In this document: in pieces, positions 5,368-53,741 of the stretch | How positions within the stretch are numbered: position 1 is the first letter of the stretch | How the letters are laid out: every line of letters begins with the position of its first letter | DNA from: Candidatus Micrarchaeia archaeon | GTDB lineage: Archaea; Micrarchaeota; Micrarchaeia; Burarchaeales; JACRGF01 | Assembly (NCBI GenBank): GCA_038870455.1 | Contig: JAWCPB010000001.1 | Coordinates: 3,734 to 67,733 of the forward strand | Reading direction: 5' to 3' | DNA: 64,000 nucleotides | Notes under the pieces: generated by a model | What the model was told of the DNA's origin: nothing | The model's input: only the letters and a program-made list of their open reading frames with translations | The model's database searches: none | Position numbers and translations under genes: made by a program

Positions 5368-6039
5368 TTAAAGGCTTTCTGTGGAGAGAAACCGGAGGAT
5401 CTTTTTTCTTTCTCCCAAGCCCCTCACGAGCAGGTCCGCTCCCGCCCTCGCCAGCTTCACCCTCGGCTCAAATCCTGTGGCAACCCCGATCACACACATT
5501 CCTGCGTTTCTCGCCGCCTTTATCCCGATGGCTGAATCCTCAATCACAGTGCATGCGCTCGGCTTGGCACCGAGCCGCCTCGCAGTCCTCAGCAGGAGGT
5601 CTGGCGATGGCTTCGGCCTATCGCCGGCCTCTGTGGTGGTGACGGCGTCAAAGAACGCGGTGAGGCCATAGTGTCTGAGGAAAGCCTTTACGAGCGCAAG
5701 CCGGTTTGATGTGGCCAGGCCTATGCGCATGCCTGTTTTTCTCAGCGCGCGTAAAAGCGGCCTTGCGCCCGGCGTGAGCTTGTTCCTGCCTGCCATGCGG
5801 GCTTGTATGAGCGTCTTTCTTTTTGCGATGCGCTCGATCACGCTCGCGCTTTTGTTCAGCCCCTTGTAGTCGAAGAATCGTTTTATGAGCAAAAAAGGAC
5901 CTTGTCCCCAGAAACGCCTTATCTCGTCCTTCGTTATCGCATAGCCGGCCTCAGCGAGCGCCTGCTTGTATGCGGCAATCCCCGCCTCCCGCGTGTCGGC
6001 CAGCACGCCGTCAAAGTCGAAGATGACAGCCTTGGCCAC
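5368..6039 (-). CDS. HAD-superfamily hydrolase (phosphatase/beta-PGM-like)
   Basis: Motif I DFDGVL at the N-terminus. Motif III-IV region ...GIKAARNAGMCVIGVATG. Confidence 0.8.
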   Translation of the reverse strand: MAKAVIFDFDGVLADTREAGIAAYKQALAEAGYAITKDEIRRFWGQGPFLLIKRFFDYKGLNKSASVIERIAKRKTLIQARMAGRNKLTPGARPLLRALRKTGMRIGLATSNRLALVKAFLRHYGLTAFFDAVTTTEAGDRPKPSPDLLLRTARRLGAKPSACTVIEDSAIGIKAARNAGMCVIGVATGFEPRVKLARAGADLLVRGLGERKKILRFLSTESL

Positions 6040-10401: not shown

Positions 10402-10525
10402 AGCCCCGTCGTCTAGCGACCCTTTTTCGTCGAAACGAAAAAGCGTCGACGGAAAAAGGTCGGGCAATGGCCAAGGATTCGAGGCTTTGGACCTCGAGAC
10501 GTCGGTTCGAATCCGACCGGGGCTA
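10402..10525 (+). tRNA. tRNA-Gln (anticodon UUG) with ~51-nt intron in the D-loop
   Basis: Acceptor AGCCCCG (10402-08) pairs with CGGGGCT (10518-24); A1:U72 is typical of archaeal tRNA-Gln. D stem GTCT / GGAT. Anticodon arm CGAGG-CTTTGGA-CCTCG with anticodon TTG at 10487-89. T arm GTCGG-TTCGAAT-CCGAC. Removing 10417-10467 (itself a long hairpin) gives a 73-nt mature tRNA. No encoded CCA. Confidence 0.8.
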
Positions 10526-16867: not shown

Positions 16868-17048
16868 GGGCCGGTAGATCAGCGGTAAAACCCTTTTCCG
16901 ACGCTTCGGAAAAGCGTTTACGGAAAAGGTTTCGCGTGAGATCGCCGCCTTCGCATGCCTCTCTGGGATCAGAAAAAGGCGGAGGCCAGGGGTTCAAACC
17001 GAACCGCGGGAACTAGTCCGGCGGTTGGTGAAAATCCCCTCCGGTCCA
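16868..17048 (+). tRNA. tRNA-Ala (anticodon CGC) with three introns (D-loop, anticodon loop 37/38, T-loop)
   Basis: Acceptor GGGCCGG / CCGGTCC with the G3:U70 Ala identity pair. D stems GATC (16877-80 and 16940-43). Anticodon arm CCGCC-TTCGCA[21-nt intron 16956-16976]A-GGCGG. Variable AGGCC. T arm AGGGG-TTCAAA[~36-nt intron 16999-17034]T-CCCCT. The D-loop carries an ~50-nt insert (about 16887-16936). The spliced product is near-identical in its stems to canonical archaeal tRNA-Ala. Confidence 0.75.
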
Positions 17049-17993: not shown

Positions 17994-18248
17994 ATGTACG
18001 GGCAGACAATCAAAATCTGTGCGGATGCCGCTGAACGCGTTTTCAAGAAACTATGGAAGAGCGCGCCCCGGCAGGCTCGCGTCGTCCTGTCCGCGTGGCT
18101 GGACAGGATAGAGCGCCTGAAAGAATGCATTCCGGAAGCCGTAATGCCGAAGTACGACGGGTTTGAAGTGCGTGCGCGCATGGGGCGCGCACTGCCCGCG
18201 AAAGACTTCGCACGCATTCCGCCCTTGCTCGAGCCTTTTGGCGGCTAA
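17994..18248 (+). CDS. hypothetical protein (weak)
   Basis: In-frame ATG inside the GTG-started ORF 17691-18248. No recognisable domain. Convergent 4-nt overlap with ftsZ. Confidence 0.25.
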   Translation: MYGQTIKICADAAERVFKKLWKSAPRQARVVLSAWLDRIERLKECIPEAVMPKYDGFEVRARMGRALPAKDFARIPPLLEPFGG

Positions 18249-19318
18249 ATGTAGTTGATGTCCTCAAGGCCCAGCACGAGCTTCGCGTCCTGCTGCCTCT
18301 CGAGCGGCTTTCCGAGAATCTGCGGCGATGTTATGCCGGTCATTATCGCGGTGACGACGACCTGGTCCTCGAGCTCCGGCGACAGCCTCGCCCCCCAGAT
18401 GACATTGGCGTTCTCGTCGAAAGCCTCGGTCAGCTTCTCCCCTATCGTTGTCGCTTCGCCGAGAGTCAGCGTGGGCGAGCCGGCTATGTGAATGAGCGCG
18501 CCCTTGGCCCCCGTGTAATCCACGTCGAGAAGCGGGTTGGTGAGCGTGCTCTTGACGGCCTTCTCCACCTTGTCGGTTCCCTTTCCCTCCCCGACCGCGA
18601 TCATGGCCACGCCCGCGTTGTTCATGATCGCCTTTACATCCGCGAAGTCGATGTTCACGAGGCTCGGCAGCGTGATGGTGTCGCTTATTCCCTTGACGGC
18701 CTTGGCGACGATCTCGTCCGCGATCTGGAAGGCCTGGTTCATGGGCAGGTTCGGCACGTAGCTGACGAGGCGGTTGTTGTCTATGATGACCACCGTGTCG
18801 CAGATTTTCTTGAGCTGGTCTATTCCCCAGTAGGCCTTTTCTATCCTCGCCCTCTCGAGGCTGAACGGAAAGGTCACCATGGCCACGACAATCGCTCCCT
18901 GTTCCTTCGCCACTTCAGCGATGACCGGTCCGGCGCCCGTGCCCGTTCCCCCGCCCATTCCCGCGCTGAGGAACACGAGCTCGCTGCCAGCCAGCACTTC
19001 CCTCAGACTGTCCCTGCTCGCTTCCGCACACTTCTGCGCTACTTCGGGGAATCCGCCGGCTCCCAGCCCGCGCGTGATGGACTGGCCGATGAGCACTCTC
19101 CTGCTCGCCTCGACAATACGCAGGTGCGTGGCGTCCGTGTTTATCGCAACCGTGTCCGCGCTGCGTATGCCCATTTTCGTGAGGCGGTTTACCGTGTTGC
19201 AACCCGCCCCTCCCACGCCAACCACAGCAATTCTTATCCTGTCGGACGAGGTTGAGGCCTCGGGCTGGGGCTGCCCGCTTCCAAGAACCGAGTTAATCAA
19301 ACTCTCCACTGCCACCAC
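18245..19318 (-). CDS. ftsZ: cell division GTPase FtsZ (paralog A)
   Basis: Tubulin signature GGGTGTG, AVVGVGGAGCN, N-terminal GTPase and C-terminal domains. 357 aa. Confidence 0.95.
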   Translation of the reverse strand: MVAVESLINSVLGSGQPQPEASTSSDRIRIAVVGVGGAGCNTVNRLTKMGIRSADTVAINTDATHLRIVEASRRVLIGQSITRGLGAGGFPEVAQKCAEASRDSLREVLAGSELVFLSAGMGGGTGTGAGPVIAEVAKEQGAIVVAMVTFPFSLERARIEKAYWGIDQLKKICDTVVIIDNNRLVSYVPNLPMNQAFQIADEIVAKAVKGISDTITLPSLVNIDFADVKAIMNNAGVAMIAVGEGKGTDKVEKAVKSTLTNPLLDVDYTGAKGALIHIAGSPTLTLGEATTIGEKLTEAFDENANVIWGARLSPELEDQVVVTAIMTGITSPQILGKPLERQQDAKLVLGLEDINYI

Positions 19319-19378: not shown

Positions 19379-20449
19379 TCACCCGATTATCTCAATGTCG
19401 CCGTACGCCACTTCCTTTGGCTTGTCCTCGAACGGCTTGCCGAGCACGCTCGCGCCCTTCACGCCCGTGACTATGGCGACTATCTCTATCTTCCCGTCAT
19501 AGCCTGGTATGAGGCGCGCTCCCCACTTGACGTTCGCCTTGGGATCCATTCTCTCAGTGATTATCTCGCCTGCCTTTATCGCGTCGCCGAGCGTGAGGTC
19601 GCTTCCCCCGCTTATGTGGATGATCGCCCCGCTCGCACCCTCGAAATCAACGTCAAGCAGGCGGTTCTTAAGCACTCCCTCCGAGGCTCCGGCCACCTTG
19701 TCGGTTCCCTTTCCCTCCCCGACCGCGATGAATCCGACTCCCCCTCCGCCCATGATCGCCCTCACGTCGGCGAAGTCGATGTTGATGAGGCTCGGCTGGG
19801 TGATTGTCCAGACCAAGCCGCCGATGGCCTTGGCGAGAATCTCGTCGGCCACCGAGAAAGCGTCGTTCATGGGCAGGTTGGGCACAAGCTGCACCAGCCT
19901 GTTGTTGTCGAGCACTATGCACGAATCCACCACTTTCCTGAGATTGGTTATTCCCTCGTCGGCCTTGACTCTCCTCGCCCTCTCGAGGCTGAACGGGTAA
20001 GTCACCATGGCCACGACAATCGCTCCCTGTTCCTTGGCGATCTGGGCGACGATCGGTGCCGCGCCCGTGCCCGTTCCCCCGCCCATTCCCGCGCACACAA
20101 ACACGAGGTGTGCATTGGAAAGCTCTTTCTCCAAAAGGTGCCTGTCGACCTCGGCCGCCTTCGCCCCGGTTTCGGGATAGCCCCCGGCTCCCAGCCCGCG
20201 CGTGATGGACTGGCCGATGAGCAACTTCTTGGCCGCCTCATTCACCACGCTCAGGTGCTGCCTGTCCGTATTTATGGCCAACAGCTCGCACCCTTTCACG
20301 CCCGCCCTCACTAGCCGGTTGATGGTGTTGTTTCCAGCACCGCCCACGCCGGCGACCACTATCTTTATGCTCTCGGAGCCAAAGTTTTCCTGAGCTGGCC
20401 CCTGCTCTCCCATAACGCTTTTTATCAAACTCTCCATACTGATCGCCAC
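19379..20449 (-). CDS. ftsZ: cell division GTPase FtsZ (paralog B)
   Basis: GGGTGTGAAP, VAGVGGAGNN. 356 aa. About 55% identical to paralog A by eye. TATA TATTTAAATA at 20468-77. Confidence 0.95.
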   Translation of the reverse strand: MAISMESLIKSVMGEQGPAQENFGSESIKIVVAGVGGAGNNTINRLVRAGVKGCELLAINTDRQHLSVVNEAAKKLLIGQSITRGLGAGGYPETGAKAAEVDRHLLEKELSNAHLVFVCAGMGGGTGTGAAPIVAQIAKEQGAIVVAMVTYPFSLERARRVKADEGITNLRKVVDSCIVLDNNRLVQLVPNLPMNDAFSVADEILAKAIGGLVWTITQPSLINIDFADVRAIMGGGGVGFIAVGEGKGTDKVAGASEGVLKNRLLDVDFEGASGAIIHISGGSDLTLGDAIKAGEIITERMDPKANVKWGARLIPGYDGKIEIVAIVTGVKGASVLGKPFEDKPKEVAYGDIEIIG

Positions 20450-52022: not shown

Positions 52023-53567
52023 CTACTTTTTTCTTCCCTTAAACAACACCGCTAGGTCTTCCTCAATGCTGGCGGTGCTCTTCTCGCTTTCGGTGAGCTT
52101 TCCCTCGATTTTCTCGCGTCTCTCCTCGAGCCTGCGCAGCCTCTCGCCAGCGCTCCTACCGCCCTCCATCTGCTTGAGCAGCTCCTCAAAGCGCGCGCTG
52201 ATTTCCTTGCTTTCCTGAATCATCTGCGCCAGGCTCTTCTTGGCAGCATCGGCCTTGGCGTTCAGCGCCTCTTCCTTCTTGAGCACCTGTTTGACCTCGT
52301 ACTCATGGCTCTCGCTGAGCTCCTTGAGCTCCTTCAGGTACTTCCGCACGAAGCCCGTTTCCACGGCTTCCCTCAGGGCATTGAACTCGCTCTCGTTTTC
52401 CTTCACGTACGCAGTGAACTCGCCGAACTTCCTCTCGTACTCCTTTTGATAAGCGCTTATCCATTCATCGACCTTGCGCAGCTCGGCGATGGCCTTCTCG
52501 AGTTCGGCCACGCGCGCGTTCTCGCCATGCAGGCGTGCCCTAGCGTCGTCAATGCGCTTCTTGGTTTCGGCCTCGCTCTGCTTGAGCTTGGCGAGCGTTT
52601 CCTCCATGTCCTTTATTCTCGCGTTCTCAAGCTCGATGCGCTCCCGGGCTTCCTTGATGTGCGCCTTCGTCTCGCGCTCGATGTCGGACAGCCTGGCGAG
52701 CGCGTTCTCCATGTCGTCAAGGCTGGCCGTCTCCTTGGCGATGGTCTTCCTCGCCTCCTCCGAGCTCCTGGTCACGCCGGCCTGCAGCTCGCGCAGCAGG
52801 CTCACGGTCTGCTGTATCTTGCCGGTGGTCTCGTCGAGCGCCTTCCTGGCCTCCTCCTCCTTCTGCTTCAGCTTGAGCACGTCCAGCTCGACATTGCTTA
52901 TCATGTCCGGAATCTCGATGGCCCTCTGGCGCAGGCGCAGAATCTGCGTTTCCTTGGCCTGCAGGCGGTCTTCGAGCGCCTCCAGCTCGGCCTCGAGCCT
53001 TTTTGCAATGGGCAGGTAGGCATCACGCACGAGAGTTTCGCGCTCGCTCTTCAGCTCCTCAATCTCCTTGGCCTTCTGGTTGATTTCGGAAATCTTCGCC
53101 TTGAGCGCCTCGGACAAATCGACTATCTCCTTGGGCTTGGCCTCGCGCGCCGGCGCGGGCGTCTTGGCCTCAGGCTTTGCCTCCTCGGCCTTGACCGGCT
53201 TCTTTATCTCCTGCTGAATTTCCTTTGCTGACGAGAGAAGCCTCTCGAGCTTTTCCTCAAGCTGCGGCTTTTCCCTCGGCGCTACGGCCTGGGAGAGCGT
53301 CGGGAGCCTCGCCTCGCCCTTCCACACGGCGTAAGCGCGCGTGAGGTGATACTCTATCCTGACGAGGCCCTGTTCCTCGAGCACGCGGCACCACTTCTCG
53401 ACATCCCTCGTCCCGAGGCCCGTGCCCTTGGCGAGCTCGCTGACCTCGACGCGTCCCTTTTCCTTGAGCAGCCTCAGCACCCTGTCCACGTCAGTGCTGA
53501 TGAAAGCATCTTCCTTCGTCACGCAATCCCCCCACACATCAGAACCAACCGATGACTTTTCCGTCAA
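52023..53567 (-). CDS. winged-helix plus long coiled-coil protein, hypothetical
   Basis: N-terminal wHTH-like region (VLRLLKEKGRVEVSELAKGTGLGTRDVEKWCRVLEEQGLVRIE), then ~400 aa of heptad-repeat coiled coil. TTG start inside repeat copy 1, so the true start is uncertain. Confidence 0.6.
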   Translation of the reverse strand: MTEKSSVGSDVWGDCVTKEDAFISTDVDRVLRLLKEKGRVEVSELAKGTGLGTRDVEKWCRVLEEQGLVRIEYHLTRAYAVWKGEARLPTLSQAVAPREKPQLEEKLERLLSSAKEIQQEIKKPVKAEEAKPEAKTPAPAREAKPKEIVDLSEALKAKISEINQKAKEIEELKSERETLVRDAYLPIAKRLEAELEALEDRLQAKETQILRLRQRAIEIPDMISNVELDVLKLKQKEEEARKALDETTGKIQQTVSLLRELQAGVTRSSEEARKTIAKETASLDDMENALARLSDIERETKAHIKEARERIELENARIKDMEETLAKLKQSEAETKKRIDDARARLHGENARVAELEKAIAELRKVDEWISAYQKEYERKFGEFTAYVKENESEFNALREAVETGFVRKYLKELKELSESHEYEVKQVLKKEEALNAKADAAKKSLAQMIQESKEISARFEELLKQMEGGRSAGERLRRLEERREKIEGKLTESEKSTASIEEDLAVLFKGRKK

Positions 53568-53620
53568 CGCTTTTGCCGGATCGCCGGCAAAAGGGTTGTA
53601 TCGTTGGTTCCGATACCTCC
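53557..53620. repeat. 64-nt double-hairpin element, copy 1
   Basis: TTTTCCGTCAACGCTTTTGCCGGATCGCCGGCAAAAGGGTTGTATCGTTGGTTCCGATACCTCC. Hairpin 1 is CTTTTGCCGG/CCGGCAAAAG; hairpin 2 is GTATCG/CGATAC. Confidence 0.8.
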
Positions 53621-53673
53621 GAACCGCGGGAACCTACGGTTCCCCCAGTTCCAGGTTCCTCCTGACCCCTCCC

Positions 53674-53737
53674 TTTTCCGTCAACGCTTTTGCCGGATCG
53701 CCGGCAAAAGGGTTGTATCGTTGGTTCCGATACCTCC
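53674..53737. repeat. 64-nt double-hairpin element, copy 2 (identical)
   Basis: Exact duplicate of copy 1, separated by a 53-nt spacer that itself contains the hairpin GGGAACC/GGTTCCC. Followed by TTTTT. Confidence 0.8.
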
Positions 53738-53741
53738 TTTT

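Follow-up and report, generated by a model that had tools for sequence, protein, structure and literature searches.

The transposed tRNA intron families of the Thermoproteales (Fujishima et al. 2010) provide evidence that archaeal tRNA introns can be gained by transposition, by a mechanism that the accessible passages of the sources treat as unknown (PMC4090602, PMC3239211). Here we describe a module of ~45 nt that lies within introns of a tRNA-Gln(UUG) and a tRNA-Ala(CGC) gene, and at two non-tRNA positions, in a 64-kb stretch of the genome of a Candidatus Micrarchaeia archaeon (contig JAWCPB010000001.1; hereafter the window, to which coordinates refer, with L and a number labelling fetched comparison loci). 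Whereas the Thermoproteales families are, as far as those passages describe them, restricted to one crenarchaeal order, the module spans DPANN, Altiarchaeota, ANME-1, Methanocellales and Thermoplasmata. It further differs from the families described there in having a co-varying hairpin, a conserved C-C mismatch and a conserved 3′ tail, and in occurring also outside tRNA genes, namely after stop codons, in tandem arrays and in a spacer that is filled here and empty in relatives. The non-canonical, ε2-cut tRNA introns of ARMAN-2 and other Micrarchaeota come from the same phylum as the window and, in the accessible text (PMC3239211, PMC3488258, PMC12397907), resemble the introns described below: one to three introns per tRNA lie at D-arm, anticodon and T-loop positions, and strict hBHBh′ and relaxed hBH splice motifs both occur, as in the Gln and Ala T-loop introns here. 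That text of PMC3239211 describes neither a shared intron module nor non-tRNA copies.

In palindrome size, stems, mismatch, adjoining motif, location and arrays the module is like the bacterial repetitive extragenic palindromes (REPs) and bacterial interspersed mosaic elements (BIMEs), and like palindromic elements derived from IS200/IS605. These palindromes are imperfect and 35–50 nt long, with strictly Watson-Crick stems, a conserved mismatch and a short motif beside the hairpin, and they are found in many copies per genome just past stop codons, between convergent genes and in arrays. We know of no REP that resides in a tRNA intron or provides a splice motif. The module differs from them in being archaeal, in its strong sense bias in tRNA genes, and in that no associated Y1/HUH transposase (RAYT/TnpA) was identified in the few annotated neighbourhoods here. 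Eukaryotic introner elements, short non-autonomous repeats that carry or reconstitute splicing signals, explain bursts of intron gain according to the accessible part of one source (PMC11282704). As described there, introners likewise create or occupy introns via host splicing signals; the module would differ in using an endonuclease and a ligase on a bulge-helix-bulge (BHB) fold instead of the spliceosome, in its tRNA hosts, and in a mobility that we infer. Guided by a first-pass annotation of the window, we also looked for box C/D guide features and found that the four Gln and Ala introns lack even TGATG and CTGA, and that no Rfam small nucleolar RNA matches at E ≤ 10. With neither C/D nor C′/D′ boxes, the module introns are unlike the intron of archaeal tRNA-Trp, in which Singh et al. 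reportedly described, in 2004, an encoded box C/D guide RNA and hence a functional RNA within a tRNA intron. By splice motif, spliced product and comparison with an orthologue the module introns belong to the BHB class, and what sets the module apart from known intron families is that its sequence identity extends across phyla, that its structure is defined and that it also occurs outside tRNA genes.

ARAGORN found no tRNA in the whole window, and Rfam recognized only the 3′ part of the tRNA-Gln (10469–10525; 29.3 bits against a threshold of 29). The gene (10402–10525, + strand) lies immediately 3′ of that for prolyl-tRNA synthetase (ProRS), whose product matches a Candidatus Micrarchaeia metagenome-assembled genome at 100%, and is laid out as AGCCCCGUCGUCUAG, 51 nt and UGGCCAAGGAU.... 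Exon 1 (10402–10416, +) comprises the 5′ strand of the acceptor stem, U8 and C9, the D-stem strand GUCU, and A14 and G15 of the ARAGORN cloverleaf; these first 15 nt are identical in the orthologues L120, L121, L123 and L125. Exon 2 (10468–10525, +) extends from the remaining D-loop to the discriminator A73 and encodes no CCA. Removing the intervening 51 nt between tRNA positions 15 and 16 (10417–10467, +) yielded, as the first-pass annotation had proposed, a clean tRNA-Gln(ttg) cloverleaf with A1:U72; it is 73 nt long and has the discriminator A at 10525. In agreement with this, the tRNA-Gln of Candidatus Gugararchaeum (L125), which also lies 3′ of ProRS and is identical at 62 of 73 positions overall, has no intron and runs uninterrupted over the predicted exon junction (...GTCTAG|TGGCCAAGGAT...; ...GTCTAGTGGCCAAGGAT...).

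A scan for archaeal splice motifs placed a strict hBHBh′ at precisely these intron boundaries, with an outer helix h of 3 bp, a central helix H of GUCU/GGGC, whose intron strand occupies positions −6 to −3, an intron-side helix h′ of GACC/GGUC, and 3-nt bulges, AG|C and AA|U. The scan and the minimum-free-energy fold agree on the 3′ end of the intron (10453–10467, +): an A-run with GGUC (10453–10461) pairs with the 5′ strand of the module to give h′, the host-specific GGGC (10462–10465) pairs with the D-stem strand GUCU to give the 4-bp H, and AA (10466–10467) forms the 3′ bulge together with exon U10468. At −23.3 kcal/mol (z = −4.4), the long hairpin that had been noticed in the insert at first pass is the intron's minimum-free-energy fold. 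That annotation had allowed for the Gln gene folding without an intron under another model; the alternative that did arise, a tRNA-Pro(cgg) with a 39-nt ‘canonical’ intron returned by ARAGORN when introns were allowed, is an artefact, its anticodon lying inside the module tail and the orthologue identifying the gene as tRNA-Gln. No target-site duplication was evident at the Gln intron site. We therefore regard the insert with high confidence as a BHB intron, a call made secure by the agreement of the strict motif, the canonical spliced tRNA-Gln and the orthologue junction.

The tRNA-Ala(CGC) gene (16868–17048, +), which carries the identity pair G3:U70, contains three introns and not the single one first assumed, and its spliced 74-nt sequence is identified as tRNA-Ala(cgc) by ARAGORN. 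Intron 1 (16888–16937, +) lies in the D-loop after nt 20, with H of GCGG/UCGC (4 bp), h′ of AACC/GGUU (4 bp) and an h broken by one A-A mismatch beside the D-stem. Intron 2 (16956–16976, +), at the canonical 37/38 position, has a relaxed motif with 3 bp in H and 5 bp in h, and intron 3 (16999–17034, +), in the T-loop, has 4 bp in H, 5 bp in h and a weak h′ of 1 bp. The latter motif, of the relaxed hBH type, resembles that reported for ARMAN-2 tRNA-Cys. Among the three, only the D-loop intron contains the module.

The Gln intron and the Ala D-loop intron had been taken at first pass for related D-loop inserts of about 70% identity. Both do interrupt the D-loop, though the sites differ (after nt 15 in Gln, after nt 20 in Ala), and their relatedness is clear: a global alignment gave 35 identical columns of 51 (69%, z = 7.5), including all the blocks that had been named, and its score of 52 compares with 8.6 ± 5.8 in 5,000 shuffles, none of which scored as high. 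A gapped module pattern matched the window three times where no match was expected. A covariance model (R1) built from a 59-sequence alignment of the module matched both introns at E ~ 1e-14 and found exactly four copies in the window at that level, two of them outside these introns, with the next match at E = 0.058. One genome thus holds highly similar introns in different isoacceptors and at different positions (15/16 and 20/21).

Coincidental runs of low-complexity A/T sequence, or convergence forced by the splice motif alone, might be held responsible for this likeness, given that U- and A-runs abound in both introns and any BHB intron needs a helix beside its splice sites. However, 0 of 5,000 shuffles reach the alignment score, three pattern matches stand against an expectation of none, and the common blocks include GCGU..ACGG, which is neither helical nor of low complexity. 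The blocks also recur, among the matches listed, in about 86 archaeal assemblies with co-varying flanks, and L121 and L123 have unrelated introns at the same Gln site, which shows that the sequence is not imposed by the site. Shuffles, pattern expectation, flank co-variation and R1 have already refuted this explanation, to which we attach practically no credence. The similarity almost certainly reflects a shared dispersed module: the two introns are alike because both are copies of one element, not because they carry a signal specific to this pair of tRNAs.

The module reads nn-ACC-C-UUUU-(variable stem-loop)-AAAA-G-C-GU-n′n′-ACGGAAAA. Its 5′ strand, nnACC-C-UUUU (S1), and the strand AAAAG-C-GUn′n′ (S2) contribute to two stems, P1 and P2, and the 3′ tail follows P1. 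Copy 1, in the Gln intron (10417–10457, +; R1 match 10415–10461, 53.8 bits, E = 3.9e-14), consists of S1 CGACCCUUUUU (10417–10427), the distal P2 stem-loop CGUCGAAACG (10428–10437), S2 AAAAAGCGUCG (10438–10448) and the tail ACGGAAAAA (10449–10457). Copy 2, in the Ala D-loop intron (16888–16927, +; R1 match 16886–16932, 54.4 bits, E = 2.5e-14), reads AAACCCUUUU-CCGACGCUUCGG-AAAAGCGUUU-ACGGAAAA and is followed by GGUU (h′), UCGC (H) and GU (bulge). Copies 3 (53669–53717, − strand; 54.7 bits, E = 2.1e-14) and 4 (53552–53600, −; 52.9 bits, E = 7.3e-14) are the first and second of two identical non-tRNA repeats 3′ of the L10e gene. Rfam holds no family matching any copy, at the gathering threshold or at E ≤ 10, and the module is not described in the searchable open-access literature. 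By eye we rejected a K-turn (no GA opposite the tail), an H/ACA RNA (no pocket, and ACG instead of ACA), a hammerhead core (no CUGANGA) and the origin-recognition-box and Xer/dif consensus sequences. A U-A-U major-groove triple helix like that of the expression and nuclear retention element was also rejected for the sense strand, in which a single U-tract stands beside two A-tracts; of the two strands, the antisense alone would fit.

To follow the module beyond the window, one genome per species was scanned with the pattern CTTTTN{8,26}AAAAGCGTNNACGGAAA, of which a tail-independent form is ACCCTTTTN{8,26}AAAAGCGT. The scan gave at least 117 loci; among the matches listed, to which the counts below also refer, 106 are archaeal (about 86 assemblies) and 11 bacterial. 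The archaeal matches come from DPANN (Aenigmatarchaeota, Micrarchaeota, Woesearchaeota, Nanoarchaeota, Iainarchaeota, Parvarchaeota, Undinarchaeota and Nanohaloarchaeota) and from Altiarchaeota, ANME-1/Methanophagales, Syntrophoarchaeum, Methanocellales and Thermoplasmata. The module is therefore not confined to close relatives, the same ~20 specified bases occurring in several archaeal phyla. The bacterial matches lack the flanking context, and only one (L067) reaches R1 E ≤ 0.01 (21 bits). A viral vector found no support: there were two IMG/VR matches only, one a chance match in coding sequence without ACC context and the other weak. The latter, a divergent match at 5696–5739 (−) of an IMG/VR contig (L119), scores 25.7 bits and has UGAGUC in place of nnACCC.

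Homology of the archaeal matches rests on flanks that the pattern does not specify and that are both conserved and co-varying. Of 128 instances, 99 have ACC ahead of the U-run, and in these the dinucleotide before ACC forms Watson-Crick pairs with the NN of GCGU-NN-ACGG, one position in 98/99 and the other in 96/99, with 14 dinucleotide combinations represented. In the 59-sequence alignment the outer of these pairs is standard in 59/59 sequences, with all four Watson-Crick types represented, and the inner in 57/59; the covariation score was 0.324, against 0.084 for shuffled alignments. Applied to the fetched loci, R1 gave 122 + 24 matches, about 25 of them off-pattern with the tail still recognizable. 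Copies number four in the 64-kb window and five in the 8 kb of L099.

Deletion across the module restored an ARAGORN tRNA in 25 of 97 instances, compared with 0 of 83 controls shifted by 400 nt. This relaxed reconstruction misses hosts with several introns, among them the tRNA-Ala of the window, and its count is therefore a lower bound; a strict version that assumes a single BHB intron recovered hosts in 19 of 105. The restored hosts represent at least 15 isoacceptors, and their junctions lie in the D-loop, anticodon region, variable region, T-arm and acceptor end. In 30 cases an intact T-arm was found downstream on the strand of the module; in 2 it was on the opposite one. In hosts with a strict motif the 5′ splice site falls 0–2 nt before nnACC, and the module therefore constitutes the 5′ edge of the intron. 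An Aenigmatarchaeon (L009) carries the module at the same tRNA-Gln D-loop site as the window.

Outside tRNA genes, copies in ANME-1 and relatives start 2–5 nt past a stop codon; the genes concerned are unrelated, and the copies often lie where two genes converge. Some copies abut a tRNA 3′ end, and L056, L091 and L010 contain tandem arrays with periods of 46–50 nt. Two of these arrays (L056, 173–404; L091, 7645–7843), both from one Ca. Iainarchaeum metagenome-assembled genome (MAG), consist of four head-to-tail units with periods of 46 and 50 nt. They apparently lie within anticodon-region introns of tRNA genes, in which case one intron can hold an array of modules. One uncultured archaeon has three copies (two places in L071, and L110) with an identical ~45-nt downstream extension that includes a TTTATATA box, which suggests that the repeated unit is longer or that the module sits 5′ of a promoter that is itself repeated.

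Orthologous introns indicate what becomes of the module after its arrival. A relative whose ProRS is 84% identical has introns at the same Gln (L120) and Ala D-loop (L131) sites, in which S1 and the intron 3′ end that partners it (S3; an A-run with GGUC or GGUU) are kept and S2, P1 and the tail are eroded. The Ala intron of a more distant relative (L132) likewise keeps S1 and S3, with S2, P1 and the tail gone. R1 detects none of L120, L131 and L132; canonical module copies persist elsewhere (L010) in the genome that holds L120 and L131. The most conserved blocks of the module (AAAAGCGU..ACGG) are thus dispensable for splicing, because they are eroded in sister genomes whose tRNAs must work. 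The first-pass suggestion of a conserved processing signal accordingly holds for S1, nACC(C)UUUU, and its partner AAAAGG(G)Un′, which form h′ and survive in the decaying orthologues, but not for the best-conserved blocks. Across Micrarchaeia the 15/16 intron of tRNA-Gln is retained, with unrelated hairpin content in L121 and L123; Gugararchaeum has none. Judged from these alignments, the canonical copies look young, and intron content seems to turn over at a fixed site.

A second intron, a long one, interrupts the tRNA-Gln of L121 (4413–4720; ProRS 66% identical) close to the anticodon-stem/variable region. Its parts are a homopyrimidine/homopurine hairpin (CCCCUUUUCUUUCUUUUCGG...CCGAAAAGAAAGAAAAG), another purine tract and a tail-like end, ACGCGGAAAGAAA, and the intron may be related to the module, though divergent.

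S1 can pair with either of two strands, S2 and S3. The minimum-free-energy fold pairs S1 with S3 in the Gln and Ala introns and with S2 in the stand-alone copies, and the S1:S2 hairpin co-varies and holds a C-C mismatch that is invariant in the module alignment. One explanation of this arrangement is a bistable device that times splicing: S1 would pair first with S2, in a hairpin weakened by the C-C mismatch, and then with S3 in the more stable helix that creates the splice motif, which an inner ACGCUU/AAGCGU hairpin would accompany. The two partners of S1 within compact tRNA introns, the different folds of intron and stand-alone copies, the strong co-variation support for S1:S2 and the internal ACGCU(U) of many subfamilies, which pairs perfectly with S2, are all in keeping with such a device. 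Sister genomes, however, splice the same tRNAs without an intact S2, no S3 is immediately adjacent in 72 of 106 instances, and many copies lie outside introns; moreover, timing would leave the conserved ACGG and the cross-phylum identity unexplained. We consider a bistable device distinctly improbable.

The composition of the stems bears on whether the module is maintained as RNA or as DNA. P1 is Watson-Crick in 194 of 198 pairs, and among the variable pairs of 100 distinct P2 stems we counted 234 Watson-Crick, no G-U, no A-C and 8 C-C. Helices maintained only as RNA usually carry wobble pairs. These stems resemble inverted repeats that are perfect but for one specific irregularity, such as are found in DNA repeats of the REP type or of the miniature inverted-repeat transposable element (MITE) type. 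Like such repeats, the module is short and imperfectly palindromic, its arms being strictly complementary and its irregularity conserved, and it occurs extragenically and in multiple copies per genome, including arrays.

The absence of G-U from about 245 variable stem pairs is accordingly atypical of a structured RNA that benefits its host, the main alternative way to account for the conservation of the module. According to this explanation the excised, probably circular, hairpin with its ACGGAAAA tail would bind a conserved archaeal protein or persist as a stable small RNA, an option also raised at first pass, with tRNA introns and 3′ untranslated regions serving as convenient sites of expression. 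An identical core in distant phyla, the strong sense-strand bias in tRNA genes, the invariant C-C mismatch, a tail present in essentially all of the about 25 off-pattern R1 copies, and the three-way co-variation of tail and stem would be expected of such an RNA, for which the box C/D guide of the Haloferax tRNA-Trp intron is a precedent. Yet sister-genome introns have lost S2, P1 and the tail while their tRNAs persist, the P2 stem-loop that should confer specificity is hypervariable, the lineage distribution is patchy, and neither box C/D motifs nor an Rfam match at E ≤ 10 were found. We think a host-beneficial RNA unlikely.

The tail itself varies in concert with the stem. In off-pattern variants S1, S2 and the tail change together at three stem levels: ACCC/GCGU/ACGG becomes ACC/CGU/ACG in L090, L010 and L055, AC/GU/AC becomes AG/CU/AG in L099 and L016, and AC/GU/AC becomes GC/GC/GC in L013 and L098. 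In a subfamily with a homopyrimidine stem the tail is a parallel complement of the pyrimidine strand, that is, a mirror image of the purine strand, over runs of up to 13 positions. This relation follows at least eight C/U patterns, as in L056 (CUUUUCUUUCC / GAAAAGAAAGG) and L090 (CUUUUCUCUUUUU / GAAAAGAGAAAAA), and is limited to 26–28 of the 106 instances, a low-complexity subfamily. Parallel-complement runs of at least 8 positions occur in 27% of instances, against 6.5% with shuffled partners. By comparison of these variants the tail appears to be more than a passive spacer, and the pattern points to a three-strand relationship, either a triplex or a fold read by an enzyme.

Taken further, the module might be three-stranded, as a purine-motif triplex in sense single-stranded DNA or RNA or as a U-A-U / C+-G-C triplex in the antisense strand, and such a structure could be recognized by an enzyme or block polymerases. 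The excess of long parallel-complement runs over so many C/U patterns, and triple changes at three stem levels in independent genomes, speak for it. Set against them, the long mirror relation is found only in the homopyrimidine subfamily, where near-mirror symmetry also allows antiparallel pairing, and the tail in the Gln and Ala introns of the window is fully accounted for as the partner in h′. All-RNA purine-motif triplexes are, in addition, regarded as unstable, and the tail begins right after the 4-bp P1 helix, with no space for a turn. A three-stranded module is, in our judgement, highly improbable.

Downstream of L10e the module is part of a lineage-specific insertion of about 190–205 nt (53536–53741, −) that carries copies 3 and 4. 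It lies after the L10e stop codon and before the retained ancestral spacer (GUGUGGGGGGAUUGC-GUG) and the start of the next gene. In the relatives L126 and L127, whose L10e is 84% and 81% identical, the insertion is missing and the spacer measures ~22 nt, compared with ~220 nt with two modules in the window. This is a DNA-level filled-versus-empty site; at tRNA sites we saw turnover of intron content and no clean filled-versus-empty insertion. The insertion contains an exact two-fold repeat of a 64-nt unit (flank plus module) and is bounded by imperfect inverted repeats, ATCGGAACCAACGAT / ATCGGTTGGTTCTGAT, which form a closing helix of 12–13 bp (fold z = −5.5). Neither the flanking inverted repeat nor the flank sequence has another copy in the window or in all loci. 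Splicing of the whole insertion is not claimed, since the continuous 12–13-bp helix is clearly favoured over the candidate BHB motifs that exist. In a Logan short-read assembly of the same organism (L129), a contig with an identical L10e ends ~34 nt past the gene, at the start of the insertion, which fits repeated DNA disrupting short-read assembly.

Elsewhere in the window, a 12-nt tandem repeat, GCCCATTCCCCC, occurs in 2.2 copies at 18941–18966 and at 20069–20094, within two adjacent open reading frames of ~356 amino acids (18245–19318 and 19379–20449, both −), which suggests a tandem gene duplication.

The reading that we favour, with moderate confidence, is that the module is a dispersed, probably mobile, REP/MITE-like element that forms introns. 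The idea of a mobile or duplicating intron family, one of those raised at first pass, is well supported by the four copies in the window, the about 86 assemblies, the many isoacceptors and the filled-versus-empty site. We picture a small non-autonomous DNA repeat that would insert or duplicate and persist only where it is harmless, in introns, from which it is spliced out, and in 3′ intergenic spacers. In a tRNA precursor the 5′ strand of the module (n-ACC-C-UUUU) pairs with the A-run and GG(G)U-n′ at the intron 3′ end to form h′. The last six intron nt are host-specific, and four of these pair with the upstream exon (D-stem strand GUCU in Gln, GCGG in Ala), forming a 4-bp central helix that sets both splice sites in 3-nt bulges. 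By what is known of the pathway, the archaeal splicing endonuclease, probably of the broad-specificity ε2 type in Micrarchaeota, would cut at 10416|10417 and 10467|10468, and an RtcB-type ligase would join the exons and probably circularize the intron. An ε2 splicing endonuclease has been reported in the Micrarchaeon ARMAN-2, according to the accessible part of the source (PMC3239211). After insertion the AAAAG-C-GUn′n′ strand and the ACGG tail would decay and the strands needed for splicing would be kept.

Several observations weigh against a mobile DNA repeat. The few annotated neighbourhoods, which come from relatives and from the organism's own short-read contigs, showed no transposase, nuclease or reverse transcriptase. 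The host-specific last six nt are not explained by simple cut-and-paste, because a single-copy tRNA gene tolerates a new insertion only if this can be spliced immediately. The sole clean filled-versus-empty site, at L10e, carries extra flanks seen nowhere else. Conservation of the pattern positions is true by construction, because the loci were gathered with an exact pattern. A core of ~20 identical bases across phyla, together with the co-variation of tail and stem, speaks for a strong functional constraint, and it is not obvious that a purely selfish repeat in decay would be under one. Finally, the 30:2 sense bias and the placement at the 5′ edge fit RNA-level selection or RNA-mediated insertion at least as well as DNA transposition. 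Because of the sense bias, the flush 5′ placement and the host-complementary 3′ bases, an RNA-mediated route, such as reverse splicing, or a host-function model stays alive beside the REP/MITE-like element.

A bolder form of the mobile-element interpretation, which we put forward tentatively as a possibility, is that the module is a pan-archaeal non-autonomous mobile element of ~45 nt, the counterpart of REPs and introners, that generates or reseeds tRNA introns, its C-C mismatch and its ACGG-purine tail, matched to the stem, marking a three-stranded or other unusual fold recognized by an enzyme. If true, such a module would be the missing vector for archaeal tRNA intron gain, one that brings the intron half of the BHB with it. 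How archaeal tRNA introns are gained at many positions has been open since the Thermoproteales families were described, and a sharply defined module makes the question testable through four properties that it combines: hosts of at least 15 isoacceptors with insertions in every arm, presence in several phyla, copies outside tRNA genes, and fresh and decayed states in sister genomes. The module also hides tRNA genes from standard finders, which missed both tRNAs of the window, and its recognition would improve the annotation of DPANN and other uncultivated archaea. Apparent gaps in the tRNA complement of uncultivated archaea feed into estimates of metabolism and completeness, and MAGs of this kind are likely to be under-annotated.

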